The notes beneath the pieces were generated by a model. That model ran no database searches and was not told the DNA's origin. It worked only from the letters and a program-made list of their open reading frames with translations. From the IMG/VR virus record IMGVR_UViG_2778261463_000013, positions 1 to 21,415 of that record: a stretch of DNA of 21,415 bases; one strand, written 5' to 3'. This stretch comes from a virus (lineage: Duplodnaviria; Heunggongvirae; Uroviricota; Caudoviricetes). A program made the translations under genes and the position numbers. Shown here piece by piece: positions 3,004-21,415 of the stretch. How positions within the stretch are numbered: the first letter of the stretch is position 1; every line of letters begins with the position of its first letter.

Positions 3004-3076
3004 TCAAAGGGGTGAGATTACCGCGTGTGTGGGTAATGATTACGCAAAATCAACCAGCCAGACAAGGGTGAAACAT

Positions 3077-4132
3077 ATGAGTGAAACACGCTTTCATGGT
3101 GCGCGCGTAAGGGAAAGTACCGGCCTTGCCACCGCCATTAATGATGTGGATTCCAGTGTTATTGGTATTGTGGCTACGGCAGATGACGCGGATGAAACTC
3201 TGTTCCCGCTGAACAAACCCACACTGCTGACCCGCGTCAGTGATGTGCTGGGTAAGGCCGGCACAAAGGGGACGCTTTACAAATCGCTTAAGGCTGTCGC
3301 CGACCAGGTGAGCACGAAGGTGATTGTGGTGCGCGTTCCTGATGCCAGTTCTCAGGGCGCCCCGGATACAGGAGTTACATCATTCGGTCATCTGGATCCT
3401 GAAGACAGGGCATTTTTTGGTATTGATGAGTCTGAAGATGCACATCCTGTATACCCACACAAAACGCAGGACCAGTATGTCATTGGTGGCACGGATGGCG
3501 ACGGTAATTATACCGGTATGTATGCACTTCTGATAGCTGAACAGGATGATGCCATCGGTTACCGTCCGCGCATCATCGCAGCTCCCGGACTGGATACTGA
3601 AGCTGTCACAAAATCCCTGTGTGTAATTGCAGAAAAACTTCGCGCATTTGTCTACGCGGGCTGTCACAACTGCAAGAAGCCCGCTGATGCAATCAGCTAC
3701 CGCGCCAGATTTAACGAGCGCGAACTTATGCTGCTCTGGCCTGACTTCATCGCCTATAACCCGAAATCCGGCGCTAATGAGGTCTTCCCGGCTGCGGCGT
3801 ACGCCTGCGGTTTACGTGCACGTATTGACCACGAACAGGGCTGGCATAAATCGCTGTCCAACGTGCCGGTAACAAATGTGCTGGGTATTTCCAGCCCGGT
3901 GTTCTGGTCCCTTCAGTCCGAAGACAGCGATGCCAACAATCTCAACAACAAGGAAATCACTACCATCATTTGCCGTAACGGTTTCCGCTTCTGGGGCAAC
4001 CGTACGCCGGAAACGAAGGCGTATATCTTTGAGGTGTACACGCGAACCGCTCAGGTGCTGGCTGATTCCATTGCGGAAGCGCAGTTTGAAACGATTGATG
4101 CCCCGCTGACCCCTGCTAATGTGAAAGACGTG
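3077..4132 (+). pseudogene. FI: Tail sheath protein (P2 gpFI-like), 3'-truncated; reading frame runs on into antisense M sequence
   Basis: ATG at 3077 with AAGGGTG SD; product MSETRFHGARV...GWHKSLSNVPV...RNGFRFWGNRT...YTRTAQVLAD resembles P2 FI as recalled; similarity is lost at ~4125-4135, exactly where convergent M ends; the rest of the 442-aa track ORF (to 4258) is not sheath-like. Confidence 0.7.
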
Positions 4133-4909
4133 TTAACCACGTTTCGCCTTCGCTTTCGCCTTCGGCGTCGTGGTCTGTTCTCTGGTTGTATCTTTCTGTG
4201 CCGCAGGCTCCTGTGCGGCAGCGGCTTCATCCTGTCCGGCCTTTTTCAGGGCCCGTGAAAGCGTGGCAATCTCACGTTTTACCCCCGCATTCGGGTTAAG
4301 GTGCATTGCCTCACGGAACAGCTTCAGACTCACCGCCATGCTGTCGGCATCGGTCAGGCCACGACGGGCAAAGGCGCATGCCTTGCACAGCTTGGCGCGG
4401 ACCTCATCGGGCATGTCCCGGTTCGCGACAATTTGCCAGAGGGTGTCCAGCGGTTCGATGTAGCCGGACAAATCGGCGTGTGCATCCGTTCCGGCCTGTG
4501 TCAGAACAGGGTTGCAGATTTCCTCGGTCAGTACCGTGGCTGCCGTACGCCCGAAGTTGTCAGGCATCGTGAGGTTGTGGCGAACCACATAATCCCCGAT
4601 GCGCAGTGCAAGCGCCAGGTCGCCACAGTCCACGGCCCACACCATGAGTGTGGCTATCACCTCATCCTGCTGTCCGCCGTCGGCTTCCAGCGTGCCGTCT
4701 ATCCAGCCTGCAAAACCCGGCAGCATTTCACGCTTGAGCGCGGCCTTTGCCGCTTTTGCCTGGACGCCCTTTATGCGTTGCTGTGCCAGGCGCAGACGGT
4801 GAAGGACCTGCTCATGAGCCGTGCGGGCCACGATATCCTCGTTTTCTGCTGCCGTTCCTGCCCGTAAAGCCATCACGTGCTGGAAATGAGCCTGTGCCGG
4901 TGTCAGCAT
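4133..4909 (-). CDS. M: Terminase small (endonuclease) subunit, P2 gpM-like
   Basis: 258-aa ORF with ...MPDEVRAKL... region resembling P2 M as recalled; directly downstream of N with a 2-bp gap. Confidence 0.8.
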   Translation of the reverse strand: MLTPAQAHFQHVMALRAGTAAENEDIVARTAHEQVLHRLRLAQQRIKGVQAKAAKAALKREMLPGFAGWIDGTLEADGGQQDEVIATLMVWAVDCGDLALALRIGDYVVRHNLTMPDNFGRTAATVLTEEICNPVLTQAGTDAHADLSGYIEPLDTLWQIVANRDMPDEVRAKLCKACAFARRGLTDADSMAVSLKLFREAMHLNPNAGVKREIATLSRALKKAGQDEAAAAQEPAAQKDTTREQTTTPKAKAKAKRG

Positions 4910-4911
4910 GG

Positions 4912-6051: not shown

Positions 6052-6079
6052 CGGTTATCACCTCTTGTGGTTATTTCTG

Positions 6080-6916
6080 TCAGTAGTCAGCCAGTTGTCT
6101 GGACTGCCCGCCGGTTGCCGTAAAACGACTTTCCTGATCAGCGTCCAGTCCGCGCAGTCTGTTTTTCAGCTCTGCCAGCTCAGTGGACAGGGTGGCGATT
6201 TTCTGTCTGTCTGCCTGATGGCGCGATTCCAGTGCACTGAAGCGGTCGAGAAGGTCGGCATGCGATGAGGCTATCCCCTCAACGGCGTCATGAATGCGGG
6301 AGAACCGGGTGTCGTCAGCCCTGCGTCCTCGCCCAATCATGTTCATCACGCGGTTAAGCCACTGCGCACCTTCCTCGCTGCGGCGCTCCGTCAGTTCGAT
6401 CACTTCAGCCTCAATGGCGTCAGAGAACATCGGTGCTTCCGTCTGCTGATTATTGAAGGTCATGACCGAACGGCGCTGCTGCAGGGCGAACTGAAGACGC
6501 TCCGTGCCGATGCTTGCCGGGGTGTCTGTCATGGCAAGGCCAATAAGATACGGGGTGCCCGTAGGGGTGAAATTTCGTGCCAGCTCAATACTGGAGTAAA
6601 TTTTCTTACCCCGGGAGACCAGATTTTTCATGCGGTCGGTGGGTTCGATTTCCGCATACAGCGCAGTACGACCGACCAGCGGACCTTCGGTGATTTCTTC
6701 TGTGCTCAGTGCCGTCACATCACCCATGGCGGAAAATTCACTGGACGGAACCGGTGAAAGCCAGTGCTCCACGTTCACGCGTGCGCCGTAAATCTCAGGG
6801 TTGAAGTTACTGGCCGCCGCGCGCAAATCTGCGGCACTGATTTCGCGACCGTCTGCGGTGGGACCGGAAACGGCCACGCGGAATGTTTTACGGGATGTTT
6901 TTTTCTGTTCAGGCAT
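6080..6916 (-). CDS. O: Capsid scaffolding protein, P2 gpO-like
   Basis: Internal ATG at 6916 (MPEQKKTSRKTFRVAVSGPTADGREISAADL...) with GAGGG SD; matches the P2 O N-terminus pattern (FRIGVEGDTCDGRVISAQDI...) as recalled; the track's upstream extension to 7057 is unlikely. Confidence 0.85.
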   Translation of the reverse strand: MPEQKKTSRKTFRVAVSGPTADGREISAADLRAAASNFNPEIYGARVNVEHWLSPVPSSEFSAMGDVTALSTEEITEGPLVGRTALYAEIEPTDRMKNLVSRGKKIYSSIELARNFTPTGTPYLIGLAMTDTPASIGTERLQFALQQRRSVMTFNNQQTEAPMFSDAIEAEVIELTERRSEEGAQWLNRVMNMIGRGRRADDTRFSRIHDAVEGIASSHADLLDRFSALESRHQADRQKIATLSTELAELKNRLRGLDADQESRFTATGGQSRQLADY

Positions 6917-6984
6917 TGTCGGGCCCTCGTGATGATCGTTTGTCTCATGATGGCAAAACGGGGCAGGGACAGACAAAGTGCGTT

Positions 6985-7008
6985 TGTTGTAAGCGAATGC
7001 CGACAACA
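6985..7008. promoter_or_regulatory. Ogr-type late-promoter dyad (TGTTGT-N12-ACAACA) in the O / P divergent intergenic region
   Basis: Perfect 6-bp inverted repeat arms with 12-bp spacer read in sequence; placed ~65-85 bp from the P start (7071) and the O start (6916). Confidence 0.5.
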
Positions 7009-7070
7009 CCGGGCATGGCAGGAGGCCTGTAAGGGGTGAGTAAACTGCCTGAATCACATGAGGGGGAGAA

Positions 7071-8822: not shown

Positions 8823-9877
8823 TGAGCAGAAAAAATAAACAACGACGTACGAACGCCCGCGCAGCGCAGGGCAGCCTTGCGGATTCCCTGCGAAGCGACC
8901 CGACACTAAGTGCCTTCACGTTTGAAGGACCTTACCGGCTGTCAGGGGCCGACCTGCTGGACAGCATGTACTGCGCCGACAACGGGCGGTGGTTTGAAAC
9001 GCCCGTTGACTGGTACGGACTGGCACGGGCTGCCCGCCAGACGTCCTGGCACCAGTCGGCGCTCAGCTTCAAACGTAATGTGCTGCTGGGCTGCTATATT
9101 CCACATCCTCTGCTGTCCCGCCAGGAGTTCGCCGGGGTGGCGATGGACTGGTTTGTGTTCGGTAATGCCTGTCTTGAGCTGCGGCGCAACATGCTTGGCG
9201 AACCGCTGGCCCTGCGCCGGGCGCTGGCGAAATACATGCGACGTGGCAGCGATATGAAATCATGGTGGTATATACAGGAAGGACAGGAAGAGTACCGCTT
9301 TCGTGAGGGGACGATATGCCACCTGATGAATCCTGATATCAACCAGGAGATTTACGGGATGCCGGATTACCTGGGCGGCCTGCTGTCTGCCAGCCTGTCA
9401 CATTCCGCCGATATCTTCCGCAAGCTCTACTACGATAACGGCTCACACGCGGGCTGTATTGTCTACATCGGTGCGGCGCAGGTTGACCGTGAAAGCATGG
9501 AAAAACTGCGGGAAACACTGCAAAGCGCGCGTGGTGGCGGGGCGTTTAAAAATCTGCTCATCCACGCGGCGGGAGGTGGTAAGGATGGCGTACAGATTTT
9601 GCCGTTTCAGCAAATCACCGCAAAGGATGAGTTCATGAACGTCAAGGCTGCATCGCGTGATGATGTGCTGTCCGTGCACCGTGTACCGCCGCAGCTGATG
9701 GGGGCCATGCCGGGTGAGAAGGGGTCATTCGGGGATGTGGAGAAGGCAGCCCGTGTGTTTGCCATTAACGAACTGATGCCCGTCATGGAAGCAATGAAAC
9801 ACGTCAACGACTGGCTGGGCGAAGAGGTGATCCGTTTTAACCCTTACGCACTGTTAGACACCCAGCCCATATCCTGA
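8822..9877 (+). CDS. Q: Portal protein, P2 gpQ-like
   Basis: 351-aa ORF translationally coupled to P; size and synteny match P2 Q. Confidence 0.9.
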   Translation: MSRKNKQRRTNARAAQGSLADSLRSDPTLSAFTFEGPYRLSGADLLDSMYCADNGRWFETPVDWYGLARAARQTSWHQSALSFKRNVLLGCYIPHPLLSRQEFAGVAMDWFVFGNACLELRRNMLGEPLALRRALAKYMRRGSDMKSWWYIQEGQEEYRFREGTICHLMNPDINQEIYGMPDYLGGLLSASLSHSADIFRKLYYDNGSHAGCIVYIGAAQVDRESMEKLRETLQSARGGGAFKNLLIHAAGGGKDGVQILPFQQITAKDEFMNVKAASRDDVLSVHRVPPQLMGAMPGEKGSFGDVEKAARVFAINELMPVMEAMKHVNDWLGEEVIRFNPYALLDTQPIS

Positions 9878-9903
9878 CGCGCTTCGCTTGTCTGCTGCTT
9901 CGC

Positions 9904-9928
9904 CGGGGCATAAAAAATTTATGCCCCG
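9904..9928. other. Perfect palindrome CGGGGCATAAA-AAA-TTTATGCCCCG between convergent Q and the hotspot gene; no flanking U tract
   Basis: 11-bp arms, 3-nt centre, read directly; sits where a P2-family cos region would be expected (downstream of Q). Confidence 0.4.
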
Positions 9929-9943
9929 ACTCTCCAGCTCTGC

Positions 9944-10654
9944 TTAACGAAGTGCTGATGGCGCTCGCTTTTTCAGGTGATTAGCGATGTGCTTTTTCAT
10001 GTGCATAACAACATCGCCCCAGGCTTCTTCGCTGGGTTTATTGATAAATACGCGAACAGAAATATCGTCTTCCACCCGGACTCTCAGAGACACCCGTTCC
10101 GCATCTACTGAATATAATTCAAGTGCAATAACCACGCTTACCGGGTAGCTGCTGTCAGATGACTTAACCCAGGTTCGCACGGCCATGCGGAAAATATTGT
10201 CTGGTGCAGATGCGATATTGTGGACTGAAAGAGGACTAAAATCCGCCGCTGTCTTACATGGCAAGCCTGTCTCCACGTAGCGGTGCAGGTCGCCATCATC
10301 GTCTTCCCAGTACATGGATGGAAGCCCCAGCCATTCTTCATAGAAATCAATCAGCCTTGCCGCTTCATCCCGCAAAATTTGAGCTGCCTCAGCGCGTTTT
10401 TCTTCAGCTTCACGATTGATCTGGCATAAATCATTAAAGTGGCTCATGACATTATCCTCTTTTGAGTTGATGCCTGCCGCTATTCTGACTTTGCCCGGGT
10501 TCTCCTGCAAGCTGGTTATTCCTTCAGATAATTTCACAACATCTCCAACCTTGTAGCCATCATCGCCGGGCGGATGCTTACGCAACCCCGCAACTCTGAC
10601 GACATATTCTCGCTGCCTCAGTGCGATTTTGACGGCCTTATCTTTCACCCCCAT
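9944..10654 (-). CDS. Hypothetical protein (~236 aa from ATG 10654; alternative 167-aa product from internal ATG 10447), stand-alone unit in the Q-A accessory hotspot
   Basis: Long minus-strand ORF; ATG at 10654 has no clear SD, while internal ATG at 10447 is preceded by a strong AAGAGGA SD with 7-nt spacing; N-terminal ~70 aa have an AbrB/looped-hinge-like residue pattern (weak impression); no recognised homolog. Confidence 0.5.
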   Translation of the reverse strand: MGVKDKAVKIALRQREYVVRVAGLRKHPPGDDGYKVGDVVKLSEGITSLQENPGKVRIAAGINSKEDNVMSHFNDLCQINREAEEKRAEAAQILRDEAARLIDFYEEWLGLPSMYWEDDDGDLHRYVETGLPCKTAADFSPLSVHNIASAPDNIFRMAVRTWVKSSDSSYPVSVVIALELYSVDAERVSLRVRVEDDISVRVFINKPSEEAWGDVVMHMKKHIANHLKKRAPSALR

Positions 10655-10707
10655 CAAATCAAGCTTTTACGTCTTTTTTACGCTCAGCGTGAGAAATACA
10701 GCCATTC

Positions 10708-10725
10708 TGTTGTGTCGCTGCAACA
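10708..10725. promoter_or_regulatory. Dyad TGTTG-N8-CAACA (satisfies TGT-N12-ACA) resembling the late-promoter element at 2980-3003 but with a shorter spacer
   Basis: Shares TGTTGT..TCGCTG..CAACATC with the D/FI' dyad; function and orientation not established. Confidence 0.3.
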
Positions 10726-10872
10726 TCGTTCAGGGAATGCTATTTACCCCCTGAAACGCGGGCTGTTCCCCCGTCACCTGCGCGCAGAAAAAGGCCTTTT
10801 TTCGTGCACGCACGGATCCCCGACGGATCCAGACGCCACACGGGCCGGAAGGGCAAAAAGTCGTTCAAAAAA

Positions 10873-10902
10873 ATTGTGCAAATTTGTGCACTATTGTGCA
10901 TT
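10873..10902. repeat. Three direct repeats of (A/T)TTGTGCA at exact 10-bp phasing
   Basis: aTTGTGCAaa tTTGTGCAct aTTGTGCAtt read directly; helical phasing suggests an operator or protein-binding array. Confidence 0.45.
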
Positions 10903-10907
10903 GAAAT

Positions 10908-10935
10908 AAACGCCCTGGAGGAGGGCGTTTTGCTC
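10908..10935. terminator. Bidirectional intrinsic terminator after the A-linked operon
   Basis: 9-bp GC-rich stem AAACGCCCT/AGGGCGTTT with GGAGG loop, T-rich on both flanks; immediately downstream of the stop at 10938-10940. Confidence 0.6.
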
Positions 10936-10937
10936 AT

Positions 10938-11339
10938 CTATTTATAGCCTTGCCCCTTACTGGCCAGCGCCCTGATGGCAGGGCGTGCCAACACCATATT
11001 TTGGCAATGATGAATTGCCCGGCAAAATTCATCTCTACCCATTGGATGCTCAACTGGCAATGTAAAATACAGGTTCCATGCATCGCCTAAAAGTTGGGCT
11101 ATCTTTTGTTCTTCAGATGTCAGCAAGCGGTACTCCCCATCCTTGATGTAGTCACTTGTGCCATCGACCTGCTGTTCTGCAATGTGGAAAGCACCTATTG
11201 GTTTTGCTTCCAGCGATGCCAAAGCAATCCGTGCCAGTTTTTCCGCTTCTTCGGCTGGCAGTACAACGTTGCTACCAGGTCCGTATGTTTCGCGCCACTG
11301 CCTGATTGTCAGTAGTCGCTCTTTGGTTATAGTGGTCAT
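10938..11339 (-). CDS. Hypothetical protein (133 aa), last gene of the A-linked coupled string
   Basis: ATG overlaps the upstream stop (ATGA at 11336-11339); followed by a terminator. Confidence 0.55.
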   Translation of the reverse strand: MTTITKERLLTIRQWRETYGPGSNVVLPAEEAEKLARIALASLEAKPIGAFHIAEQQVDGTSDYIKDGEYRLLTSEEQKIAQLLGDAWNLYFTLPVEHPMGRDEFCRAIHHCQNMVLARPAIRALASKGQGYK

Positions 11340-11545
11340 TTGTTAATCCTCAAAACTTTATGCCCGGGCGCAAAAGCACGAGTTTTGTCTTTGCTTATTC
11401 GCCAGCCATCCTTACGCGCCTCTTTTGCACAGCCAGTCCATGACGTACCGATATATTCACCGAAGTCTGGCGTTTGATATTTACCATTTGTACACTGGCG
11501 ACAATCACAATAGAGATGCATGGTGTAACTTGCGGCAATAGCCAT
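11336..11545 (-). CDS. Hypothetical small Cys-rich (zinc-ribbon-like) protein, 69 aa
   Basis: AAGGAG SD 6-7 nt upstream of the ATG at 11545; YCDCRQC...GC Cys pattern. Confidence 0.55.
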   Translation of the reverse strand: MAIAASYTMHLYCDCRQCTNGKYQTPDFGEYIGTSWTGCAKEARKDGWRISKDKTRAFAPGHKVLRINK

Positions 11546-11546
11546 A

Positions 11547-11861
11547 TCAGTCTCCTTTGATGCCAGTGTTTACAACCTGACAAGCCTCTTTGAGCACCCA
11601 GTCAACAGCGTCTTGCCATGCTCCGGTTTCGACTGGCGGATTCTCACGCTTTACCAGTTCATAGAAACGTACTGCTCTAACCAGTCCATCTGACGGTTTT
11701 GCCTGTAGTGCAGCCTGAGCTATGCGGTATACCTGGAGCATACAGGCGTCGTTGATATCCATTCCGAATGGAATATCTGATGACTGAGATTCCACATCTT
11801 CCAGCCTGGCAATTTCTTTACGTAAGAAGCCTTTCAGTTCCTGCTTCTGTTTCCTGTTCAT
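11547..11861 (-). CDS. Hypothetical protein (104 aa)
   Basis: ATG at 11861 preceded by GAAGGA SD; the track start at 11876 is TTG; 1-nt gap to the next gene. Confidence 0.5.
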   Translation of the reverse strand: MNRKQKQELKGFLRKEIARLEDVESQSSDIPFGMDINDACMLQVYRIAQAALQAKPSDGLVRAVRFYELVKRENPPVETGAWQDAVDWVLKEACQVVNTGIKGD

Positions 11862-11872
11862 ATATTTTTCCT

Positions 11873-12067
11873 TCAAAGTTCGGTTCGCTGACAGGGTTTC
11901 TCTTTACGGCAGACAATGACGCTTCCTTTGCTCGAGTCGGTGATTGTTACCGTGCCGTCATCACACTGGACAATGACAACGGTGTTGCTCTTTTTCGCTA
12001 CGCAGTTCGGCGTGGCTGATTGTGCGAATGGCGCGAAAAACAGCAGAAAAAGTAATATTCTGCTCAC
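11873..12067 (-). CDS. Hypothetical small secreted protein (64 aa): predicted Sec signal peptide plus ~43-aa mature part with 4 Cys
   Basis: GTG at 12067 preceded by GGGAGGA SD (8-nt spacing) and overlapping the upstream stop (GTGA); N-terminus SRILLFLLFFAPFAQSA is signal-peptide-like; the track's ATG at 12244 would overlap the upstream gene out of frame. Confidence 0.4.
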   Translation of the reverse strand: MSRILLFLLFFAPFAQSATPNCVAKKSNTVVIVQCDDGTVTITDSSKGSVIVCRKEKPCQRTEL

Positions 12068-12495
12068 TGTTGTTTCCTCCCGTTCTGTGCTGGTCTGGCG
12101 AATGAATTGCGTTGTGGTGAAAAGACCATTCGCGCCAGCGCGGCCTTGTGATTGACTGTGTTCAGTGTTCTGGCCAGTCCGCCGTTGTGCCTGCGTGTCC
12201 GCTCTTCGTGATATCTCTGCATGATTTTCCCGGCAGGCGTGCACGGCTCCGGTTCCTCCGGCGAACGGCGCGGACGAATGACGACAGTCCAGCTATGGCT
12301 CTCGCTGCCCGGCCGCCTGTTGAGTATGTCGGCGATGGTGGTCTCCGTGGTGCGATCGGGGCTGACTATCGTGATTTCCAGCTCGTCGCCCGGTTGTGGC
12401 CTTGTGGCAGGCCTGAACAGTGTCAGCACCGGCATACGCTGGCGCATGATGGCCTCAAACTGTGGGCGCTGCATGGTGCAGCAAAATCGCGTCAT
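12064..12495 (-). CDS. Hypothetical protein (143 aa), translationally coupled to A
   Basis: ATG overlaps the A stop codon (ATGA at 12492-12495); Pro/Arg-rich; no recognised homolog. Confidence 0.45.
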   Translation of the reverse strand: MTRFCCTMQRPQFEAIMRQRMPVLTLFRPATRPQPGDELEITIVSPDRTTETTIADILNRRPGSESHSWTVVIRPRRSPEEPEPCTPAGKIMQRYHEERTRRHNGGLARTLNTVNHKAALARMVFSPQRNSFARPAQNGRKQQ

Positions 12496-15002
12496 GCTCC
12501 CGCCTCCACTGGCTGCTCTGTGATGATGTGACGGGCTGACTCATCCCAGTACGCTGTTCCCCCGTTATCCAGACGCACACGGGCACCGTTACGCACGGAG
12601 ATGATGGCCGCGTCAGGCAACTGCACACCCAGCGCATCAAGTTCGCGGGCGATTTGCGTGTCCGTCGCGGTATCCGCAGGCACGACAATCCCCACCCTTA
12701 CAGGGGTGTCAGATGCCGGTGTGGTGTCGTTTTGTCCGGTTTTTGCGCCCGACGGCTGATTTTTAATCTGATTACGCAGTTTTCTCCGATCGCCCCTGCT
12801 TAACGTATTCAGCCAGCTTTCCAGGTTCTCTTCGGGAAGCGTCAGTCGTCCGGGGTCCTGCCTGTTTTCTGGTCCGTGATTGTCTGTTTTTTCATCCCGG
12901 GGACAGTTATTGCCACGAGTCCAAGGGGCGACGGGGTCGCCCTGAAGGTCAAAACCCTCGCCCGTGCGGTTGTCTGGTGTTGTTTCTTTTTTAACCAGTT
13001 TCCACTCGTCCGGATGGGTGCATATGGTGTACCGCTCTCCGAGCGACGGGGCGCAGATTCCGTAGATACGTTGAGGGAATTCACCGTAGTCGTTGGCTTC
13101 GTCTGCGGTTTCGTATGCGGTGCGGACCAGATACTGGTTGCGCGGAATGAGCACACCACCCTGTTTCATGATGTAGGTGGCAAAACATCCCACATCTGCG
13201 GCAGCCATAATGGCGTCAATATCGTCATGATCGAGGTGCTTCGGTGATGCCGGGTTGCGCTCCATCTGGCTTGCAAGGCGGCGGAGTTCACGCCATACCT
13301 GGCGGGGCGGAATGCCGAAAAACTGGAACTGACGGATGCGGTGAAGGCTTGCCCAGGCAATGGCGTTCTCCACGGTTTCCGCCATGGTTTTCCCGGATTC
13401 CTCATCAACGTAAGGTTTTCCGGTTTTCGGATCATTGTTGTGGAAAGCGCTGGCGTCCAGGTTCTTACCGATATAGGTTGCGATATAGCTTGCCGGTGTG
13501 CCTTTTTCCGGGTCTATCTTCTCGCATTTAAAGCGCGGTGAAATATCGTCCCCCAGTTCGTGGCGATCTGATTTAATTGCTGCTTCGCGCATAATTTCGA
13601 TGATGCGCTCTGCGTTCTCCGGGGAAGTGAATACCAGCATATGCCAGTGTGGCGTGCCGTCATGGTGTGGCTCAGCGGTTCGCACGCCGTACCAGCCCAG
13701 CCCCTCTTTTTTTATTTTTTTTCTTACGGCTGCGAAGAAGTCGTAAACCAGATAATCACTGGCATCTCGTACTGTGGCACCGTTGTATTTCGGGTTCAGG
13801 CTGCCGTTCTCGTTCACGCTGTGAAAGCGGGAAGGGGTGGTTACTGTGATGAAGAATGCGACGTCAGCCCGTAATTCGGCCACCATCTCCATCCCTCTGA
13901 CGCAGACCATCATTTCATTGCGGCGGTTGCGTGGATTACCCAGGCCAGCCCAGTACACGTCCTCCAGACTCAGGCGCTCGCCGTCTTCGTTTTCAATATC
14001 CCAGCTTTTGAGAAAGTCACGGGTGCGCTGGCGCTTCTCGCGGAACTCCAGTAGTGACTCATGGCTGATATAGGGGGATTGTTTACGTGACACTCTGCCG
14101 GCGGCGCGCAGTAACTCCTCCCGCCAGAGATCGGCGACGTGGCGTAACTGGTTGTTCCACCAGGTCGCGCAGGTGATGCGCAGTACCGCACCCGGAACCC
14201 GTTCAGGGTCCGGCGGTGTGCGTCGGTTGTGCCTGATTTCGAGTTCCGGCCAGTATGGCGGGACCACGCCCAGAATTAAGGCTGTGCGTGCCACCTTCTG
14301 GTAGGCCAGCAGCCAGATAACCGGGCTGTCATTATCCTTGCCTGTCCGTTCAAGAACTTCATCACATATGCGTTCAAATTCTGCGGCGAATGCCTGGGCT
14401 GTCAGTGTGGCGATGCGCTGGATTTCGTCACGGGTGAGTTGCGGCAGTGTGAGCAGTTCTTCAAGGCGATGGCGCACGACGGTGGTTTTGAATGCCGGCG
14501 TTGCAAAGCGGTCGTTAACCCTTTCAATACGTTTCAGGCGCGCACGCAGTCCACGGCGAACGAAATTATCGGCCACGTATGCGCTGTTGTTTTTTACACC
14601 TTCACTGCGGGCACTTTGCTGTTTCCGGTTCAGTCGTGCCAGATCACGGATCAACACACTGGCAAGAAACGAGGGCAGGGTGCGAAGTTCGGCTATCGCC
14701 TCCGATACCGCCGTTGGCGGATTTTCGCGTCTGTGTCGTGCCAGCTTATCCAGCCTTATCTGCCGCTCTTCGTCCCGGTGAAGGTGTGAATTAATTTGCT
14801 TACCTTTGTCCGTGGTTGTCAGGAAGGCCACGGTTTCTTCATCCAGCCGGGCCTCAGTGCGAATGTCTTCGGTGAGGTAGTCACGGATTGCCCGTTGTAA
14901 TGCGGTTGGCTTCTGCGGTAATGCTCTGCCGAATGTCTCAGGATCAATAACCGGCAGCGGGGCGTTCCACGGGTACGCCAGGTGCGTGTGGTGATGGCTC
15001 AT
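12492..15002 (-). CDS. A: Replication initiation endonuclease (rolling-circle HUH family), P2 gpA-like
   Basis: 836-aa ORF; HUH motif region ...HHDGTPHWHMLVF...; GGGGAG SD 8 nt upstream of the ATG at 15002. Confidence 0.9.
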   Translation of the reverse strand: MSHHHTHLAYPWNAPLPVIDPETFGRALPQKPTALQRAIRDYLTEDIRTEARLDEETVAFLTTTDKGKQINSHLHRDEERQIRLDKLARHRRENPPTAVSEAIAELRTLPSFLASVLIRDLARLNRKQQSARSEGVKNNSAYVADNFVRRGLRARLKRIERVNDRFATPAFKTTVVRHRLEELLTLPQLTRDEIQRIATLTAQAFAAEFERICDEVLERTGKDNDSPVIWLLAYQKVARTALILGVVPPYWPELEIRHNRRTPPDPERVPGAVLRITCATWWNNQLRHVADLWREELLRAAGRVSRKQSPYISHESLLEFREKRQRTRDFLKSWDIENEDGERLSLEDVYWAGLGNPRNRRNEMMVCVRGMEMVAELRADVAFFITVTTPSRFHSVNENGSLNPKYNGATVRDASDYLVYDFFAAVRKKIKKEGLGWYGVRTAEPHHDGTPHWHMLVFTSPENAERIIEIMREAAIKSDRHELGDDISPRFKCEKIDPEKGTPASYIATYIGKNLDASAFHNNDPKTGKPYVDEESGKTMAETVENAIAWASLHRIRQFQFFGIPPRQVWRELRRLASQMERNPASPKHLDHDDIDAIMAAADVGCFATYIMKQGGVLIPRNQYLVRTAYETADEANDYGEFPQRIYGICAPSLGERYTICTHPDEWKLVKKETTPDNRTGEGFDLQGDPVAPWTRGNNCPRDEKTDNHGPENRQDPGRLTLPEENLESWLNTLSRGDRRKLRNQIKNQPSGAKTGQNDTTPASDTPVRVGIVVPADTATDTQIARELDALGVQLPDAAIISVRNGARVRLDNGGTAYWDESARHIITEQPVEAGA

Positions 15003-15007
15003 TCCGC

Positions 15008-15421
15008 TTACTCCCCTGCTGTTGCCTTCTCAAATGCAGCCCGGTACAGCACAAGAAGGCGCTGGTATTCAGCGATAAAGTCTTCTGCTGTTTTAATCCC
15101 TTTCACGACCACGCTGTGGGTGGTCATTTCCAGAACGAGCACCATTTCTGACGATGACCAGCTGATAACGCTGCTGTCGCACCCGTTGATGTGGAACAGG
15201 CCCAGCACCATGCTGTGGTTCTGGTCTCTGACATCCACGCGGTAACGGTCATCAACGGTGAAGGAAAAATTCCCGTATGTGGTGGCGCTGCTGGCGGCCT
15301 GTTTACAGGCGCGGCGGTAATAGTCATGCAGGTCATTGAGACGGGAAGCGAGGCGTGGATCCACCGCCCACATCCAGTTAAAAAAATCCTGAATATCTGA
15401 AAGTCCCTTAACGCTCTTCAT
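15008..15421 (-). CDS. Hypothetical early-region protein (137 aa) immediately upstream of A
   Basis: GGAGG SD 6 nt upstream of the ATG at 15421; position equivalent to P2 orf80-83. Confidence 0.6.
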   Translation of the reverse strand: MKSVKGLSDIQDFFNWMWAVDPRLASRLNDLHDYYRRACKQAASSATTYGNFSFTVDDRYRVDVRDQNHSMVLGLFHINGCDSSVISWSSSEMVLVLEMTTHSVVVKGIKTAEDFIAEYQRLLVLYRAAFEKATAGE

Positions 15422-15489
15422 GAGAACCTCCGGAAACGGACGTGCGGAAGCCTCCCGCGTACGGGGGCGGGATGGCTCCGGGATGTTGA

Positions 15490-15717
15490 TTAGTGGTGGT
15501 AGTGCTGGTTAATGAGGTCCTGCAGCTTGCGCAGGTCATCCGCCAGGTAGCTGAATACAGCGGCGGAATACATGTTTGACAGTGCGTGGCTGCGCTCATG
15601 CAGCATATTGATGTGCATGATATGCGCGACGCGGAATGCGCGGGAAAGTCTGCGGTTGATTTCAGTCTGGATGTGACGACGCGCAGCGTATGCGCGCTGT
15701 TGTTTGCGGTTTGCCAT
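15490..15717 (-). CDS. Hypothetical small basic protein (75 aa)
   Basis: AGAGG SD about 10 nt upstream of the ATG at 15717; overlapping 207-aa track ORF in another frame judged spurious. Confidence 0.55.
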   Translation of the reverse strand: MANRKQQRAYAARRHIQTEINRRLSRAFRVAHIMHINMLHERSHALSNMYSAAVFSYLADDLRKLQDLINQHYHH

Positions 15718-15724
15718 GGTGTTT

Positions 15725-15960
15725 GGCCTCTTCGTTTGTGAGTTTTTGGATACTCACCATCCAGAGGTTGCAATTCTGGGTGGCGAGACGTACAGGGTTG
15801 CAACCACCGGCAAACGAAGAAACCGGCCCGACCGAAGTCGGCCCCGTACGCCCCACCATAATTCTGGTGCGAAAAAGACGTGGCGATACGGTACGCACAA
15901 AAAAACCGCTGGCGCGGTTGTGCGCTTCGTTTGTCAGCGGGGGTTGCAATCCCGGCACCC
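15725..15960. promoter_or_regulatory. Repeat-rich non-coding region: three GGTTGCAA(Y) sites, one a perfect 10-bp palindrome GGTTGCAACC, plus three copies of CTTCGTTTG
   Basis: GGTTGCAA at 15766, 15796 and 15942; CTTCGTTTG at 15730 and 15925 (direct) and 15811-15819 (inverted); no convincing ORF. Confidence 0.4.
15899..15925 (-). terminator. Possible minus-strand intrinsic terminator downstream of the multi-HTH gene
   Basis: On the minus strand, stem AACCGC/GCGGTT with 4-nt loop followed by T7; stem is short so strength is uncertain. Confidence 0.35.
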
Positions 15961-16040
15961 GTTTTATGAGGTGCAGCGGAAATGTAACCTGACTGATTGC
16001 GGCATGGCAAGCGGTTTTTTTGTGTGTGCATAGTGGTTAC

Positions 16041-16595
16041 TCAGTCCGGTAGCAGTTCGCAAAGCACGGTGTCAGCGGCGGTATATCGTGCGTAAAGCCG
16101 GGCGAGGACCCATCTTTTAAGGGATATCCCGGTCGTGTCCCGGATGTACTTTCTGATTTCGCTGAATGTCATCCCCTGTTCATCGCGCAGTTCAGTTACC
16201 AACTCCACCAGGTGATCGCTGTATCTGGCTCTGTGGTGGAGTTCCCCGTATTTCCTGAACCGGTACCCTCTTTTTCTCAGGTTCAGTCCCACCGTGGATG
16301 TCGAGCGCCCCAGTTCATTCGCGAGTTCCCGGATGGTTTTTGTGTGGCGATTCCTGATGAGCGTGTTGAGTTCTTTTGTATTCAGGGGGGGGTGTTTGGT
16401 GTGGATAACCCCCTGAGAGAGCAAAAGACGGATGCGGCTTCGTATTGCTGGCCCGGTTCTCTGAAAGTGTTTTGTCAGTTCTGGTACGGTGTGGGAGGGG
16501 TATAAACCGACCAGTAGAGCATCTTCCTGTTGTGTCCAGGCTCTGACATGCTTCGGTGGTACACCTGATACACCCATAGGTTTAAGTGCGGGCAT
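16041..16595 (-). CDS. Predicted DNA-binding protein with three HTH-like segments (184 aa)
   Basis: ATG at 16595 with GGAGA SD; segments ...TVPELTKHFQRTGPAIRSRIR..., ...TIRELANELGRSTSTVGLNLRKRG..., ...TFSEIRKYIRDTTGISLKRWV... fit HTH patterns, reminiscent of paired HTH domains of transposase N-termini or GcrA/Myb-like regulators. Confidence 0.55.
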   Translation of the reverse strand: MPALKPMGVSGVPPKHVRAWTQQEDALLVGLYPSHTVPELTKHFQRTGPAIRSRIRLLLSQGVIHTKHPPLNTKELNTLIRNRHTKTIRELANELGRSTSTVGLNLRKRGYRFRKYGELHHRARYSDHLVELVTELRDEQGMTFSEIRKYIRDTTGISLKRWVLARLYARYTAADTVLCELLPD

Positions 16596-16829
16596 AGTTG
16601 TTCTCCGTTGTTCTGTTTTGTGTCGGGGTAATGGTCCGGTTTTTTCGCCTTCAACCGGAAAAGAAGGGCGTGTTAGCATTGATGAATCCGCCGTTCAGTG
16701 GATCTGGCGGACACTTTGTTCAACACGCCCGGGGGTAAAGATGTCTGGCTGCAAAAATTCCACGAGCCAGGTTACCCTGCACTCTGCGCTGATTAGGGGC
16801 AGAGCGATGACGATGAGGGATAAAACACC

Positions 16830-17312
16830 ATGCAAAACAACCAACGTAAAAAATCGAGAGAACGGGATGAGGTCATGTTCCGTCTCTGGTACAGCTACTG
16901 GCTGGAGCGCATCGCGGCGGTGTTCAATCGTCGCCTTGATGCGATCATCAACATTTTGATCCTTGCGGCGGGTGCGTTCATCGTAGCCGGCTGGCATTTC
17001 GGCTGGGTGCTGGGGGCAGTGGTGGTGGTTCTCGGAGCCTGTAATTTCATATGTCGTTTCGGGCAACGTGCGCAGGCGGCGAGTGAGCATGCCCATCGCT
17101 ACAATGAGTTGATTACCAAAAGCGCCCTCCTCAGTACGGAAGCTCTGCTGGCACGCCTTCCAGAGCTTGAGATGCATGACTCTCCTGTCCTGGAATGCAT
17201 GGAAAATGTGGCGTACAACAAAGCCTGTATGTCTCTGAATATCAGTCATCGTGAATCTCTCTCTTTCGCTGAAAAGATGATGGCTGCCATTACGATCGGT
17301 TTGTCCCGATAA
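16830..17312 (+). CDS. Hypothetical membrane protein (160 aa), lone plus-strand gene inside the minus-strand early region
   Basis: GAGGGA SD upstream of the ATG at 16830; hydrophobic stretch IINILILAAGAFIVAGWHFGWVLGAVVVVLGA; overlapping minus-strand 211-aa ORF judged spurious. Confidence 0.5.
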   Translation: MQNNQRKKSRERDEVMFRLWYSYWLERIAAVFNRRLDAIINILILAAGAFIVAGWHFGWVLGAVVVVLGACNFICRFGQRAQAASEHAHRYNELITKSALLSTEALLARLPELEMHDSPVLECMENVAYNKACMSLNISHRESLSFAEKMMAAITIGLSR

Positions 17313-17351
17313 GTGCCCTGCGTGTGTCATCTGACGCTCGCCATGTTCCCG

Positions 17352-17564
17352 TCAGTCGTTCGGGTTTATGACGTAATCCACGACGTTTTCCACGCGGCGG
17401 CGTAATTCCCTGTGTATCTGGCCTGGTGTTGCTGGTTCGCCCGGTTGCCCCAGGCCTGCCACAAAATCGTCGATTTCACTCATAAGCAGGTTGCGCATTA
17501 CGGCGATATGGTGACGCGCCTCTTTGCCTGGTCTGCGTGCGTTGGTATCGTGTTTGCTGCTCAT
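17352..17564 (-). CDS. Hypothetical protein (70 aa)
   Basis: ATG at 17564 overlaps the upstream stop (ATGA); GAGG SD upstream. Confidence 0.45.
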   Translation of the reverse strand: MSSKHDTNARRPGKEARHHIAVMRNLLMSEIDDFVAGLGQPGEPATPGQIHRELRRRVENVVDYVINPND

Positions 17565-17770
17565 GTTCTTACCTCGCTTATTATCTCGAGTTCGCGCCAT
17601 GACTCTGTCAGGACGGTTATCTGTGACCCGTCCGTCAGGTGGACGTAAATCAGTTCGTCACCTGCCGGGCATCGGGTGGTGGTGGCTATGACACTGCTTT
17701 CCACTTCGTATTCCATCCCGGATGTATCGGTAAAAAGCGTTTTATTGCGTCTTCTCAGAATTGCAGTCAT
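17561..17770 (-). CDS. Hypothetical protein (69 aa)
   Basis: GAGGG SD 8 nt upstream of the ATG at 17770. Confidence 0.5.
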   Translation of the reverse strand: MTAILRRRNKTLFTDTSGMEYEVESSVIATTTRCPAGDELIYVHLTDGSQITVLTESWRELEIISEVRT

Positions 17771-17780
17771 GGTGTGGCCC

Positions 17781-18074
17781 TCAGTGCATTCGTGATGACG
17801 TGCCAGCCTCAGTGCTCTGAAGCTGACGTCTGAGGTTTTTCAGCTCCTGAGCCAGCCTGATGTTTTCTTCCCGGAACTCAGAAAGCGCCTGCACGGCAAG
17901 GGCGATGGCTATCGCTTCTGTCTGGTGCATCATGGCTAATAATATTTCTTCCGGATGTTCCATTAATTCACGGCTTAGTTTGTTTTTTTTCTTAATTAAT
18001 TTGTTTGTGCCTTCGATTATTTTGTTGACCTGTTCACTGTTATCAATGATTCGGTTTTTTTTATTATTAAGCAT
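17781..18074 (-). CDS. Hypothetical protein (97 aa), Lys/Asn-rich N-terminus, coiled-coil-like, in a markedly AT-rich segment
   Basis: Strong AAGGAGA SD 8 nt upstream of the ATG at 18074; local AT-richness at 17940-18070. Confidence 0.55.
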   Translation of the reverse strand: MLNNKKNRIIDNSEQVNKIIEGTNKLIKKKNKLSRELMEHPEEILLAMMHQTEAIAIALAVQALSEFREENIRLAQELKNLRRQLQSTEAGTSSRMH

Positions 18075-18154
18075 TCCTGATTTCTCCTTTTTGAGCGGGT
18101 CAACCCCTCCGCGTGAGCGGATGTTTCTGGTTGTTTCTGGTGTTAAACGCCTGT

Positions 18155-18280
18155 TTATTTACGGCGCTTATCGCCAGTAAATAACGATTCAATGGTGTTA
18201 ATGCTGTTAATTACCCGCATAATCCCCACAGCGTAAATAATGGCAAGGATAAGAATTAACCATGACATAAATACGCTCAT
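18155..18280 (-). CDS. Small hydrophobic peptide (41 aa), single predicted TM helix with basic C-terminal tail, translationally coupled to the upstream gene
   Basis: ATG at 18278-18280 overlaps the stop of the 80-aa gene (ATGA); translation MSVFMSWLILILAIIYAVGIMRVINSINTIESLFTGDKRRK; below the ORF-track size cut-off. Confidence 0.35.
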   Translation of the reverse strand: MSVFMSWLILILAIIYAVGIMRVINSINTIESLFTGDKRRK

Positions 18281-18519
18281 GCTTCCTCCTGAATTACAAA
18301 GGGGGTTATTACGTTTCCTTCAGACAGGTCTTTATTAATGGCCTGTAATTCCGTCAGAGCTTCATTATCTCCGGAACCAAAGGCGCAACAGGTCAGGCCC
18401 TTGATTGCTGTAGTCAGTGCTGCAAGTGAAACAGCGTCACCGTTAGTGCCACGGCTTGTAAGTCCGTAATGGTAATTCTGAAGCGCGTGGTTAATGAGTT
18501 CTTTATAGGCTCTTTTCAT
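18277..18519 (-). CDS. Hypothetical protein (80 aa)
   Basis: AGAGG SD 8 nt upstream of the ATG at 18519. Confidence 0.5.
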   Translation of the reverse strand: MKRAYKELINHALQNYHYGLTSRGTNGDAVSLAALTTAIKGLTCCAFGSGDNEALTELQAINKDLSEGNVITPFVIQEEA

Positions 18520-18557
18520 CTTGCTGCCTCTTCTGTCTTATTAAGACTCCTTTTGCC

Positions 18558-18896
18558 TTAGTAGTCGGTATGCTGAAAGCTGCGCCCCTCGATTAAGCGG
18601 TCGGCAGTTCGCAAGGCTTCGTGCAGTGTGAAATCCTGTCCGAACTGATTGTCGCCGCTGCTCAGTGCAAAAATGCGGTTTCCGGTAAACGGATTGCGGT
18701 GGCATCTGTGGATCACGAGTCCGGCCTGCTCAATCAGCCAGGTGTGTTGACCAGTCTGTTTTACAGCATGACCGCCCGGTGTTGCGTGTGTCTCGCTCAG
18801 GCTGTAGCGGGAGTTACTACGTGATGCACTGGTAGCGAAACGGTTAGCGTGACGTTCAGCACCATTACGAAAGCGTGAATTACGTTGCTGTTTCAT
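18558..18896 (-). CDS. Hypothetical protein (112 aa)
   Basis: ORF in operon orientation; weak SD. Confidence 0.45.
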   Translation of the reverse strand: MKQQRNSRFRNGAERHANRFATSASRSNSRYSLSETHATPGGHAVKQTGQHTWLIEQAGLVIHRCHRNPFTGNRIFALSSGDNQFGQDFTLHEALRTADRLIEGRSFQHTDY

Positions 18897-18920
18897 GTTA
18901 AAGACTCTGTACAGATTTAA

Positions 18921-19004
18921 TTATTCCGGCATAGCGGCGAACTCAAAATATTTGCGATTAAATCGCATCGCATTGTGTTCACGTTTTGCGGACTGCTGGT
19001 TCAT
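18921..19004 (-). CDS. Possible 27-aa basic peptide with strong SD
   Basis: GGAGG SD 9 nt upstream of the ATG at 19004; translation MNQQSAKREHNAMRFNRKYFEFAAMPE; very short, could be chance. Confidence 0.2.
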   Translation of the reverse strand: MNQQSAKREHNAMRFNRKYFEFAAMPE

Positions 19005-19147
19005 TTTCGTTTGCCTCCGCACATGAGAATTACGCCGCTTAAGAGGTAACCGAAGTTAATTGATAGTATTACAATTAACATAAGGTCCAATTTGTCCATG
19101 CCACACATAATTACCCTCATTGCAGTAGTTGTGGTTTATCAGGTTTC

Positions 19148-19354
19148 TCACCCGATAAACCAGATAACAAACGCTATAAACATCGCCCCAATAGCTGCCG
19201 GGAAAAGTCCTTTGGTATAAGCGGCGATATATTCAATGCTGAGTTCAATAAAGCGTTCTTCATGTCCCGTTAACTTACGAAACAAATAGATCGCTATTAC
19301 GCCTATCTCAATAAAAACAAGTGTCAGAATGGCGCTGATGATATTGCTGGTCAT
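19148..19354 (-). CDS. Small membrane protein (68 aa, two predicted TM segments)
   Basis: Hydrophobic segments IISAILTLVFIEIGVIAIYLF and AAIGAMFIAFVIWFIG; begins 8 nt after the Cox-like stop. Confidence 0.45.
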   Translation of the reverse strand: MTSNIISAILTLVFIEIGVIAIYLFRKLTGHEERFIELSIEYIAAYTKGLFPAAIGAMFIAFVIWFIG

Positions 19355-19362
19355 TTTCGTGT

Positions 19363-19884
19363 TTAGCCGGGCTGGTTGTTTTTGAGTTGCTCCAGTTTTG
19401 AAACTCTGGGGGAGTAAACCTGCTTACCTTTAACGGTCTGGCAGTCCTCCTTGTTTGCCGGTGAAAACTTTCTTTTCTTGCGGTCGTACGTCCAGTAGCT
19501 TTTCCAGTTGTGCCACTCTGGCGGTTCGCACTCCAGTAGTTCGTCGGCTAGTTCGTCCCAGGCTTTGGCGTTAAACCACCATGTACCGTCTGACTTTTCA
19601 TCTTCGGGATTTGAGCGCGTTTTGTGACCCGGCATCTGCCCGCGCTGAATGGCGGCGCGTAGCGCAGATTTTGTTACCCCCAGATAGGCAGCCCCTTTTT
19701 CCAGTGACACAAGTCCTGCGACTGGGCCGTCCAGTCGTAGGGTTGCGCCCTTTTTGTAGGACGGTCTGGTTTTGGTTTCCAGGTGTTCGTTGTCGTTGGC
19801 AGCTTCAATGAATTCATTGTCCGCGCCATCATCCTGAACCGGTTGAGCGCCAGATAACTCTTTGTCGGCAATAATCTCCCGCAT
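19363..19884 (-). CDS. Cox/AlpA-like excisionase-family HTH protein with extended termini (173 aa), divergent from C
   Basis: AGAGGA SD 8 nt upstream of the ATG at 19884; central region ...AYLGVTKSALRAAIQRGQMPG...GTWWFNAKAWDEL resembles the P2 Cox / AlpA HTH pattern; position as in P2. Confidence 0.55.
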   Translation of the reverse strand: MREIIADKELSGAQPVQDDGADNEFIEAANDNEHLETKTRPSYKKGATLRLDGPVAGLVSLEKGAAYLGVTKSALRAAIQRGQMPGHKTRSNPEDEKSDGTWWFNAKAWDELADELLECEPPEWHNWKSYWTYDRKKRKFSPANKEDCQTVKGKQVYSPRVSKLEQLKNNQPG

Positions 19885-19920
19885 TTGTTATCCTCTTGCA
19901 TTGGTGCGCTTGTTGCGCCT

Positions 19921-19964
19921 TTTGATGATTTTTGATGACTTGTAAAGATAACCGTACGGTTATC
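19921..19964. promoter_or_regulatory. Lysis-lysogeny switch operator region: direct repeats TTTGATGA x2 (10-bp phased) and perfect 18-bp palindrome GATAACCGTACGGTTATC
   Basis: Read directly in the 103-bp intergenic region between divergent Cox-like and C genes; P2 C binds directly repeated operator half-sites (established knowledge). Confidence 0.5.
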
Positions 19965-19987
19965 TTTTGTAGGAGATTAATCCCCAA

Positions 19988-20329
19988 ATGAGTATCTTGT
20001 CAATAGACTATGCGAAAAAGTTGCGTTTGATACGCAAGACGGAAGGGCTAACTCAAAAGCAATTTGCTGATATTACAGGGTTATCTCTGGCAACTGTCAG
20101 GAATTATGAGTCAGGGCAAAAGATCGCCAGAGCAAAGATTGTTGAGGCCGTCCTTCAAGTGGATCGGTTTGAAAAATATATGTTCTGGTTAATCAAAGAT
20201 AAGACGCTACCTGTTGCCGGTCAGATCGCCCCGGCTCTCTCTCTTGATGGCTCCACGCAGTCGGAGGACGATCAGGTTTCAACCCGCAATACCCAAAAAT
20301 CACCCCAATCAGGCCGCAATGCTGGCTGA
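19988..20329 (+). CDS. C: Immunity repressor, P2 C-like (HTH)
   Basis: 113-aa ORF, AGGAGA SD; HTH segment LTQKQFADITGLSLATVRNYESG; C-terminal GQIAPALSLDG...SPQSGRNAG resembles the P2 C C-terminus as recalled. Confidence 0.8.
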   Translation: MSILSIDYAKKLRLIRKTEGLTQKQFADITGLSLATVRNYESGQKIARAKIVEAVLQVDRFEKYMFWLIKDKTLPVAGQIAPALSLDGSTQSEDDQVSTRNTQKSPQSGRNAG

Positions 20330-20398
20330 CGCTGTATATTGAACGGGCGGCGTTCAGTAAGCAGGGGTTAACAGGTTTATCCGTCGGAGGTGCTGATC

Positions 20399-21177
20399 AT
20401 GTCGATTAAGCAACTCAAAGACGGACGTTATCAGGTTGATGTAAGGCCTCAGGGGGCGGGAGGAAGGCGGATTCGTAAGATTTTCACCCTGAAATCAAAG
20501 GCGCAGGAATTCGAAAGATACGTTCTTCAGAATTTCCACAATAACCCGTGGCAGGCAAGGCCCGCCGATCAACGGCGGTTATCAGAACTGATTGAGGTGT
20601 GGTGGATGCTTGATGGTCGTAATCAGGCATATGGTGATACCTACAGAACCAGACTGGAGAAGGTGATACGTGAAATGGGGGACCCGCGCGCCAGCCAGAT
20701 GACACGAAAATTCATGATTGAGTATCGCTCGGATAAGTTGCAGGCGGGACTGATGCCGTCCAGTATCAATCGCGACCTGTGCGCCTTATCTGCGATGTTT
20801 TCGTTGTTAATTGACGCGGAGGTTTATCATAACGAAAACCCTGTGCGCGGAATACGTAAACTCAAGGTTCAGAATACAGAAATGGCCTTTCTTTCAGATG
20901 ACGAGATTGATCGCCTTCTGAAACGGCTTGAGGGTGATGCACGACGCATTGCCATTCTGTGCCTTTCGACCGGGGCCAGATGGAAAGAGGCGTCAACGCT
21001 TCGCGGGGAACACATCGTGGGTAACAGGGTGACGTTCTTTAACACAAAGAACGGGAAATCGCGCTCGGTTCCTGTAGCTGATTCCGTTGTGCCGTTAATT
21101 AAAACCCGCCGGACCGGCCTGTTATATCAGGTTGATTATCTCAGTTTCAGGGAGATCCTTCAGGAGGTGAAGCCCGA
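20399..21177 (+). pseudogene. int: Tyrosine integrase, P2 Int-like, 3'-truncated (similarity lost after ...KPDL)
   Basis: ATG at 20399 (MSIKQLKDGRYQVDVRP...) with GGAGGTG SD; matches the P2 Int N-terminal and central pattern (...SSINRDL..., ...IAILCLSTGARW...); the C-terminal catalytic segment is missing and the frame continues into unrelated sequence. Confidence 0.8.
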
Positions 21178-21415
21178 CTTGCGCACGCTGTCGATAGCGC
21201 CATTCCAACAAAATCAGACGAAAAGGTTATCTGGAGCGCCTGTACAGTTAACTGTGGTAGTCGCTGCCCGCTACGTATGCACGTCGTGGACGGTGAAATC
21301 AAATATGTCGAAACGGACAATACCGGCGATGACAATTACGACGGCCTGCACCAGGTTCGCGCCTGCCTGCGTGGGCGTTCCATGCGTCGCCGTGTCTACA
21401 ATCCGGACCGCCTGA
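21178..21415 (+). CDS. dmsA: 5'-truncated DmsA-like molybdopterin oxidoreductase catalytic subunit, continuing beyond the window; no start codon or Tat-signal N-terminus
   Basis: Frame 1 translation ...RLAHAVDSAIPTKSDEKVIWSACTVNCGSRCPLRMHVVDGEIKYVETDNTGDDNYDGLHQVRACLRGRSMRRRVYNPDRL matches E. coli DmsA N-terminal region as recalled (Cys-rich Fe-S motif); this frame is open only back to 21136 and has no ATG. Confidence 0.7.

Follow-up and report, generated by a model that had tools for sequence, protein, structure and literature searches.

Fusion of a 3′-truncated P2-family integrase gene to a 5′-truncated dmsA in an Escherichia coli prophage remnant

The last open reading frame (ORF) of a P2-like prophage remnant lying between serS and dmsA of Escherichia coli begins as an integrase gene and ends over DNA that encodes, in a different frame, an N-terminal part of DmsA. 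This arrangement raises the questions of whether the joint between the two genes is genuine, what was lost when it formed, and what has become of the phage and host functions on either side of it. A sequence-only reading had proposed that a deletion took out the C-terminal part of the integrase, attL and the 5′ end of dmsA, locking the element in place and probably inactivating dmsA. The window referred to below is the whole stretch of DNA analysed, 21,415 nt in length (IMG/VR record IMGVR_UViG_2778261463_000013, positions 1 to 21,415).

The prophage and its intact counterpart

Two public contigs match the window with 100 % identity: NNVD01000004.1 (GCA_002485525.1; 175,647 bp; the probable source contig, L003) over 11.0 kb, and a contig of the Logan assembly of SRR5185883 (18,579 bp; L004) over 8.5 kb. 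L003 and L004 are identical to each other across 18.5 kb. Judged by coordinates, the window most likely corresponds to NNVD01000004.1:1754–23168; it opens with an ATG and closes with a stop codon, in the manner of a gene-bounded provirus call. The P2-type genes found within it are ogr, gpD, sheath, terminase M and P, capsid N, scaffold O, portal Q, replication protein A, cox, C and int, as assigned from the RefSeq annotation of the 99.98 %-identical LH50-c prophage and from Pfam families on the called genes. Leaving aside the 636 bp described below, the window differs from the LH50-c prophage by five substitutions and one further deletion. The features needed for the argument are the following.

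4132..4136, no strand: second, larger deletion junction, with 5-bp microhomology (window 1846–4136 aligns to L002 1–2291, and window 4132–21180 to L002 16001–33049, L002 being an intact lysogen)
19363..19884, minus strand: cox-type excisionase/repressor gene, annotated as 'Cox family DNA-binding protein' in the identical LH50-c prophage; Pfam Phage_Cox
19988..20329, plus strand: C-type immunity repressor (HTH), directly upstream of int and on the same strand; Pfam HTH_3
20399..21181, plus strand: int′, codons 1–261 of a 331-codon P2-family tyrosine integrase gene, delimited by the 261-residue prefix identical to LH50-c Int
21179..21180, no strand: deletion junction, with 2-bp microhomology (TT) of both breakpoints, from the BLAST pieces and direct reading of the sequence
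21181..21415, plus strand: dmsA′, codons 43–120, with 100 % DNA identity to annotated dmsA and running on past the window
21182..21415, plus strand: 77-codon out-of-frame tail of the int′ ORF, through dmsA, defined by translation

The gene order is that of P2 (integrase structures 5C6K and 5DOR), with cox followed by C and int, these two on the other strand, and att last. The attachment site of the window prophage, in contrast, is not a P2 site; it lies in the serS terminator and has the core CCTGCGGGCGCTTTT. A literature search on serS/dmsA as an attachment site for P2-like phages returned nothing relevant. Identical copies of the C repressor protein are found in 4470 blocks of the public collection, usually followed by a 331-aa int and then an 814-aa dmsA. 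At one other locus (L024; OZ039492.1, 4608061–4615402) the same C repressor and 331-aa int adjoin rraA, menA and hslU, without dmsA; this prophage family therefore uses, or was moved to, a second chromosomal site. No sigma-70-like promoter was found by a simple scan of 19700–21415.

At the opposite end of the window, the region beyond ogr is variable. An 84-nt direct repeat (window 1–84 and 1171–1254, 89 % identical) is a duplication of a small ORF's 5′ end, and its first copy is where the window begins. Three copies of a 37-nt hairpin unit, AAAAAATGCCCGC...GCGGGCAAAAAA, are located at 718–754, 919–955 and 1383–1419, and a hok/gef toxin gene is located on the minus strand at 353–493. Approximately 2.2 kb separates the attR core from the window start in LH50-c (L006 1815–4000). 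The source contig, with an inferred 1.75 kb or so to the left of the window, and NMLX01000020.1, with 1.8 kb (L007 1–1803), both stop short of attR, which suggests that a repeat to the left of window position 1 breaks short-read assemblies.

Of the 5426 complete E. coli genomes, 26 have the same prophage at the same site in the intact arrangement, and many of these 26 come from chicken or poultry sources. In them a 331-aa int is separated from the att core by 80 bp of phage DNA, and a further 195 bp of upstream DNA leads from the core to a full dmsA. LH10-b-1 (L001) may serve as the example, with int as 996 bp at 2500–3495, a 296-bp spacer and full-length dmsA from 3792. The intact prophage is inserted in the serS terminator, 195 bp short of dmsA, and leaves that gene uninterrupted. 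When the attR side (L006) and the attL side (L001) are set against an empty site of K-12 type (L005), the crossover falls within the terminator hairpin of serS; attB, attL and attR have the 15-bp core CCTGCGGGCGCTTTT in common. The same core has no match in the window, even with up to two mismatches allowed.

The halves of a 516-nt query span 1152 bp in every one of the 26 intact genomes, as against 516 bp in the window. In BLAST alignments to LH10-b-1, window 19147–21180 corresponds to L001 1247–3281 and window 21179–21415 to L001 3916–4152; what the window lacks is L001 3282–3917, a single 636-bp deletion relative to the intact lysogens (L001 and L002) and to the empty site (L005). The missing DNA is made up of 214 bp of int (codons 262–331 plus the stop), the 80-bp phage arm from int to the core, roughly 21 bp of the attL core region, 195 bp of host DNA upstream of dmsA, and 126 bp of dmsA (codons 1–42). 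The proposed removal of the Int C-terminus, attL and the dmsA 5′ end is borne out, as one loss of 636 bp, and alignment to the intact lysogens and the empty site sets the breakpoint at 21179–21181. The comparison is a deterministic one against intact loci and involves no statistical pattern, so chance is not an issue. A simple scan detected no terminator-like site at attL of the intact locus, and for this reason no claim is made that the deletion took out a terminator. The same kind of scan detected none between the C repressor and int′, or before the window end.

The two sides of the fusion

The last ORF of the window extends from an ATG at 20399 to a TGA at 21413–21415 and encodes 338 aa. 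Its first 261 residues are those of the 331-aa LH50-c Int, ending in ...FREILQEVKPDL, and it is unrelated to Int beyond that point; at the DNA level identity to intact int stops at window 21180, where the match had been said to run out, after EVKPDL. The description of the gene as P2-like was likewise sound. Intact Int shares 55.6 % identity with P2 Int and matches the P2 integrase structure 5C6K with E = 8e-95 over residues 47–327, and it also matches the HP1 integrase 1AIH.

The fused ORF retains the N-terminal and core-binding domain (Pfam Int_N, residues 57–156, E = 2e-30), as well as Box I, TGAR(194)W, and the TK(217)NGKSR hairpin. By likeness to XerD K172, K217 is probably the beta-hairpin Lys of the catalytic domain. 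The intact allele has the motifs HVMRH (268–272), LGH (292–294) and TYAH (Y303); none of them is in the fused ORF, which lacks H268, R271, H294 and the Y303 nucleophile; in contrast to the P2 and HP1 (1AIH) integrases, the window copy stops at residue 261, short of the HxxR, His and Tyr. Pfam Phage_integrase aligns to the fused ORF over profile positions 2–81 of 172 with 26.3 bits, below the gathering score of 27.1, and to intact Int with 64.6 bits. Within the window int is read in frame 2 and dmsA in frame 1, and because the frames differ no Int–DmsA hybrid protein is made. No Pfam match was obtained with the 77-residue tail, the int-frame translation of dmsA DNA.

Other public E. coli alleles of the same integrase cluster (P0002, P0003, P0006 and P0014) are independently damaged. 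A 322-aa allele found on 10 contigs has an in-frame loss of nine residues (VMRHTFATH), which takes out the HxxR box, and two further alleles have frameshifted tails that may be real or may be sequencing errors. In JACXXY010000001.1 (L023), int, dmsA and several prophage genes are broken into many short ORFs; this looks like uncorrected long-read indel errors and not biology.

On the host side of the joint, DNA identity to dmsA begins at window 21179 and continues to 21415, at 100 % to K-12-type dmsA, and the stretch is matched in 5424 of the 5426 complete genomes. The frame 21181–21414 encodes DmsA residues 43–120 (AHAVDSAIPTKSDEKVIWSACTVNCGSRCPL...), and Pfam Molybdop_Fe4S4 covers it over profile positions 1–55 of 55 (E = 3e-18), with the FS0 Cys motif kept. 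Both the profile match and the complete DNA identity establish the downstream frame as DmsA, as the sequence-only reading had it. That reading had started the frame at about 21175, with 'RLAHA', and here only the identity of the protein stands and not the start: true dmsA runs from 21179–21181, and the R and L of 'RLAHA' are encoded by int DNA. An imperfect cgNNtt common to both breakpoints is what makes the R-L pair look like the native 'RIAHA'.

The DmsA frame begins at A43, codons 1–42 having been deleted together with the SRRGLV twin-arginine motif. We take the DmsA leader to be 45 residues long, with its cleavage site assumed likewise; dmsA′ would then keep the last three Tat-signal residues and the mature N-terminus along with the FS0 Cys motif. 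Compared with E. coli DmsA, dmsA′ is identical to K-12-type DNA from codon 43 and retains the Fe4S4 (FS0) domain, but it is without the native upstream region, the ribosome-binding site, the start codon and residues 1–42 of the leader, and a nonsense codon in dmsB lies downstream. Comparison with the intact loci confirms the earlier statement that no start codon, twin-arginine signal, intergenic DNA or att core is left at the junction. The only in-frame start-like codons of dmsA′ within the window are codons 75, 78 and 110, all past the FS0 cysteines. In the source contig the dmsA frame remains open to its normal stop with one substitution, and Pfam Molybdopterin and Molydop_binding match the called dmsA gene there, outside the window.

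Decay around the junction and its predicted consequences

Relative to the LH50-c prophage, 13,714 bp are gone at 4132–4136. The loss comprises the 3′ end of the sheath gene and the tail tube, tape measure, fibre, baseplate, lysis and head-completion genes, and at the joint the sheath gene is fused with DNA antisense to gpM (ORF 3077–4258). The complete tail, baseplate, lysis and head-completion modules of a viable P2-like phage are not present. This 13.7-kb loss of tail and lysis genes had made the prophage non-viable beforehand, and locking in place would be a late step in its decay. At least ten samples contributed the 17 public contigs that carry the fused sheath ORF, while the joint itself is in none of the 5426 complete genomes. 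Since the sheath fusion is on 17 contigs and the int fusion on two, the tail deletion is taken to be older and more widespread and the int–dmsA deletion later; the latter would have arisen after the tail deletion and within its lineage.

Downstream of the window, the source contig carries two changes that are derived with respect to both K-12 and LH10-b-1: DmsA A405E at L003 11870, and dmsB E21* (GAA to TAA) at L003 13172. The gene caller of the source assembly reported a shortened, 176-aa dmsB. Differences from LH10-b-1 number two in the 3.2 kb of dmsAB and three in the next 7 kb, a density that is not unusual, and an enrichment of mutations in dms was rejected on these counts. It is the type of the two dms changes (a nonsense codon, and Ala to Glu), not their density, that is suggestive, and the dmsB nonsense codon fits an operon free of selection. 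With a stop at codon 21 of dmsB besides the truncation of dmsA, the dms operon is dead for more than one reason.

Excision of a prophage requires Int, attL and attR (PMC6379469). Both the Int catalytic residues and attL fall within the 636 bp, and the element is predicted to be no longer able to excise; the view that it is locked in place is supported to that extent. A related Int supplied in trans would be no rescue, because one recombination site is gone. Grounded or cryptic prophages, recognized by the loss of the recombinase and/or an att site, are a known class (PMC6379469), and losses of both kinds are seen in the window sequence. The remnant is like the grounded prophages of E. coli in its lost cis site and recombinase, in its internal deletions, and in forming a fixed island with an immunity repressor and other genes. 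It differs from them in that a single small deletion is responsible for the grounding, in that the exact ancestral state is available in 26 complete genomes, and in that the deletion also reaches into the adjacent host operon, which it is predicted to inactivate.

The DmsA signal peptide is required for assembly and Tat targeting, with DmsD binding residues 15–41 (PMC3912628), and ΔdmsA E. coli is unable to respire DMSO (PMC12096835). The DmsD-binding region, DmsA residues 15–41, lies within the 636-bp deletion. The start codon, ribosome-binding site, upstream region and residues 1–42 are all gone, which supports the suggestion that dmsA is probably inactivated; judged from the sequence, DmsABC is strongly predicted to be non-functional, so that the strain would be incapable of anaerobic growth on DMSO. 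Any dmsA′BC RNA would have to derive from read-through of the prophage C–int′ transcript.

Origin and meaning of the junction

The exact 338-aa fused ORF is on record on only two contigs, L003, from an NCBI submitter, and L004, from Logan, which were produced by different assembly pipelines but possibly from one isolate or even one read set, their independence being unproven. The junction is in none of the 5426 complete E. coli genomes, and its 41-nt sequence has no exact match in GTDB species representatives, IMG/VR or JGI metagenome contigs; its absence from those collections indicates that the allele is confined to one lineage. This scarcity, and the possibility of a single read set, are what could be said for an artefact, in which the isolate would be intact from int through attL to dmsA and the 636 bp would have been dropped by the assembler or through a library chimera. 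Several observations weigh against it. The same joint was obtained by the two pipelines in the interior of contigs of 175 kb and 18.5 kb. The missing 636 bp is single-copy in related genomes, with one place per genome, and since the breakpoints share only 2 bp there is no repeat to cause a collapse; a misjoin driven by repeats or k-mers is not expected, and repeat-driven misassembly was rejected as unlikely. Independent decay is also found nearby, in the dmsB nonsense codon, DmsA A405E and the 13.7-kb deletion seen in 17 contigs. An artefact is considered very unlikely, and at the level of the sequence the fusion of a truncated int to a truncated dmsA can be regarded as a confirmed observation.

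Very probably, a single E. coli lineage lost 636 bp of its chromosome spontaneously, by illegitimate recombination at the level of microhomology, as a late step of decay. The ancestor would have carried a P2-like prophage in the serS terminator with the C repressor and int reading towards dmsA. An earlier step would have removed tail and lysis genes from the prophage. The deletion from int codon 261 to dmsA codon 43, most likely through illegitimate recombination, would then have persisted neutrally, or under weak selection for fixation of the prophage. Deletions next to prophages are known to arise by abnormal excision, as in specialised transduction, and attL, the assembly site of Int, IHF and Cox, is at the centre of the lesion; Int, with Cox, might have acted at secondary att-like sites inside int and dmsA. 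The breaks, however, GAAGCCCGACTT|ACCCAA and AGTCGGATT|GCGCAC, are unlike the core CCTGCGGGCGCTTTT, nothing resembling the core occurs in the window at two mismatches or fewer, and abnormal excision normally takes the prophage and one flank, not a small internal piece. An aberrant site-specific event of this kind is, if anything, less probable even than an artefact.

Two further explanations would make the fused ORF more than a by-product of deletion. In SSV1-type fuselloviruses, with their split int, and in Myxococcus phage Mx8, with intP/intX, attP lies inside the int gene. The likeness of the window to such systems is superficial: the int 3′ end is replaced by host-side sequence when the element is integrated, and here the int ORF is indeed open for 77 codons past the joint, with the window ending at its stop. 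In intact lysogens, nevertheless, int is complete and its stop lies 80 bp before attL, and 26 complete genomes show the full 331-aa int, the 80 bp, the att core and an untouched dmsA, while the tail of the fused ORF is without a family match and is simply dmsA out of frame. An attP within int, as in SSV1 or Mx8, is refuted by the position of the core in the intact lysogens, and the idea that the fusion is the normal lysogenic state can be given practically no weight. A selected chimera would instead have Int′ kept as a DNA-binding regulator or dominant-negative inhibitor, or dmsA′BC placed under prophage control. Int′ does keep its arm-binding and core-binding domains, and int′ lies behind the C repressor gene in the same orientation, no terminator-like site separating the two or occurring ahead of the window end. 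Against this, the allele is limited to a single lineage, a dmsB with a stop at codon 21 and a DmsA without start and Tat signal could not yield a useful DMSO reductase, and the unrelated ways in which other int alleles are broken fit neutral decay. Retention of the chimera by selection is extremely improbable. In its more specific form, the lysogen would produce Int′, which would serve as a domesticated DNA-binding protein, for instance titrating the att arm sites of incoming P2-like phages and so blocking their integration, with dmsA′BC RNA perhaps under a prophage promoter; nothing seen requires either, and this is a highly improbable, though marginally less remote, proposal.

The spontaneous deletion is, in these terms, the ordinary and routine decay of a grounded P2-family prophage, spilling over into a host gene. 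The genes, the phage family and the process are all well known, and only this allele is undocumented; a literature search for the NNVD accession, GCA_002485525 and SRR5185883 yielded no paper. Its importance beyond annotation is small. For annotation, the 338-aa 'integrase' at 20399–21415 is a chimeric pseudogene of 261 Int residues and 77 nonsense residues, the 705-aa 'dmsA' called in the source assembly is a 5′-truncated pseudogene, and the provirus boundary at the end of the 338-aa ORF falls within host DNA. DmsABC has recently been tied to hypochlorite tolerance and bladder-cell adherence (PMC12096835), and an E. coli isolate predicted to be naturally dmsABC-null could, as a modest point, serve as a natural knockout. 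For the biology of these elements the locus offers a clean and fully reconstructible case, in which a prophage would have become permanently fixed and its decay would have destroyed the adjacent host operon.
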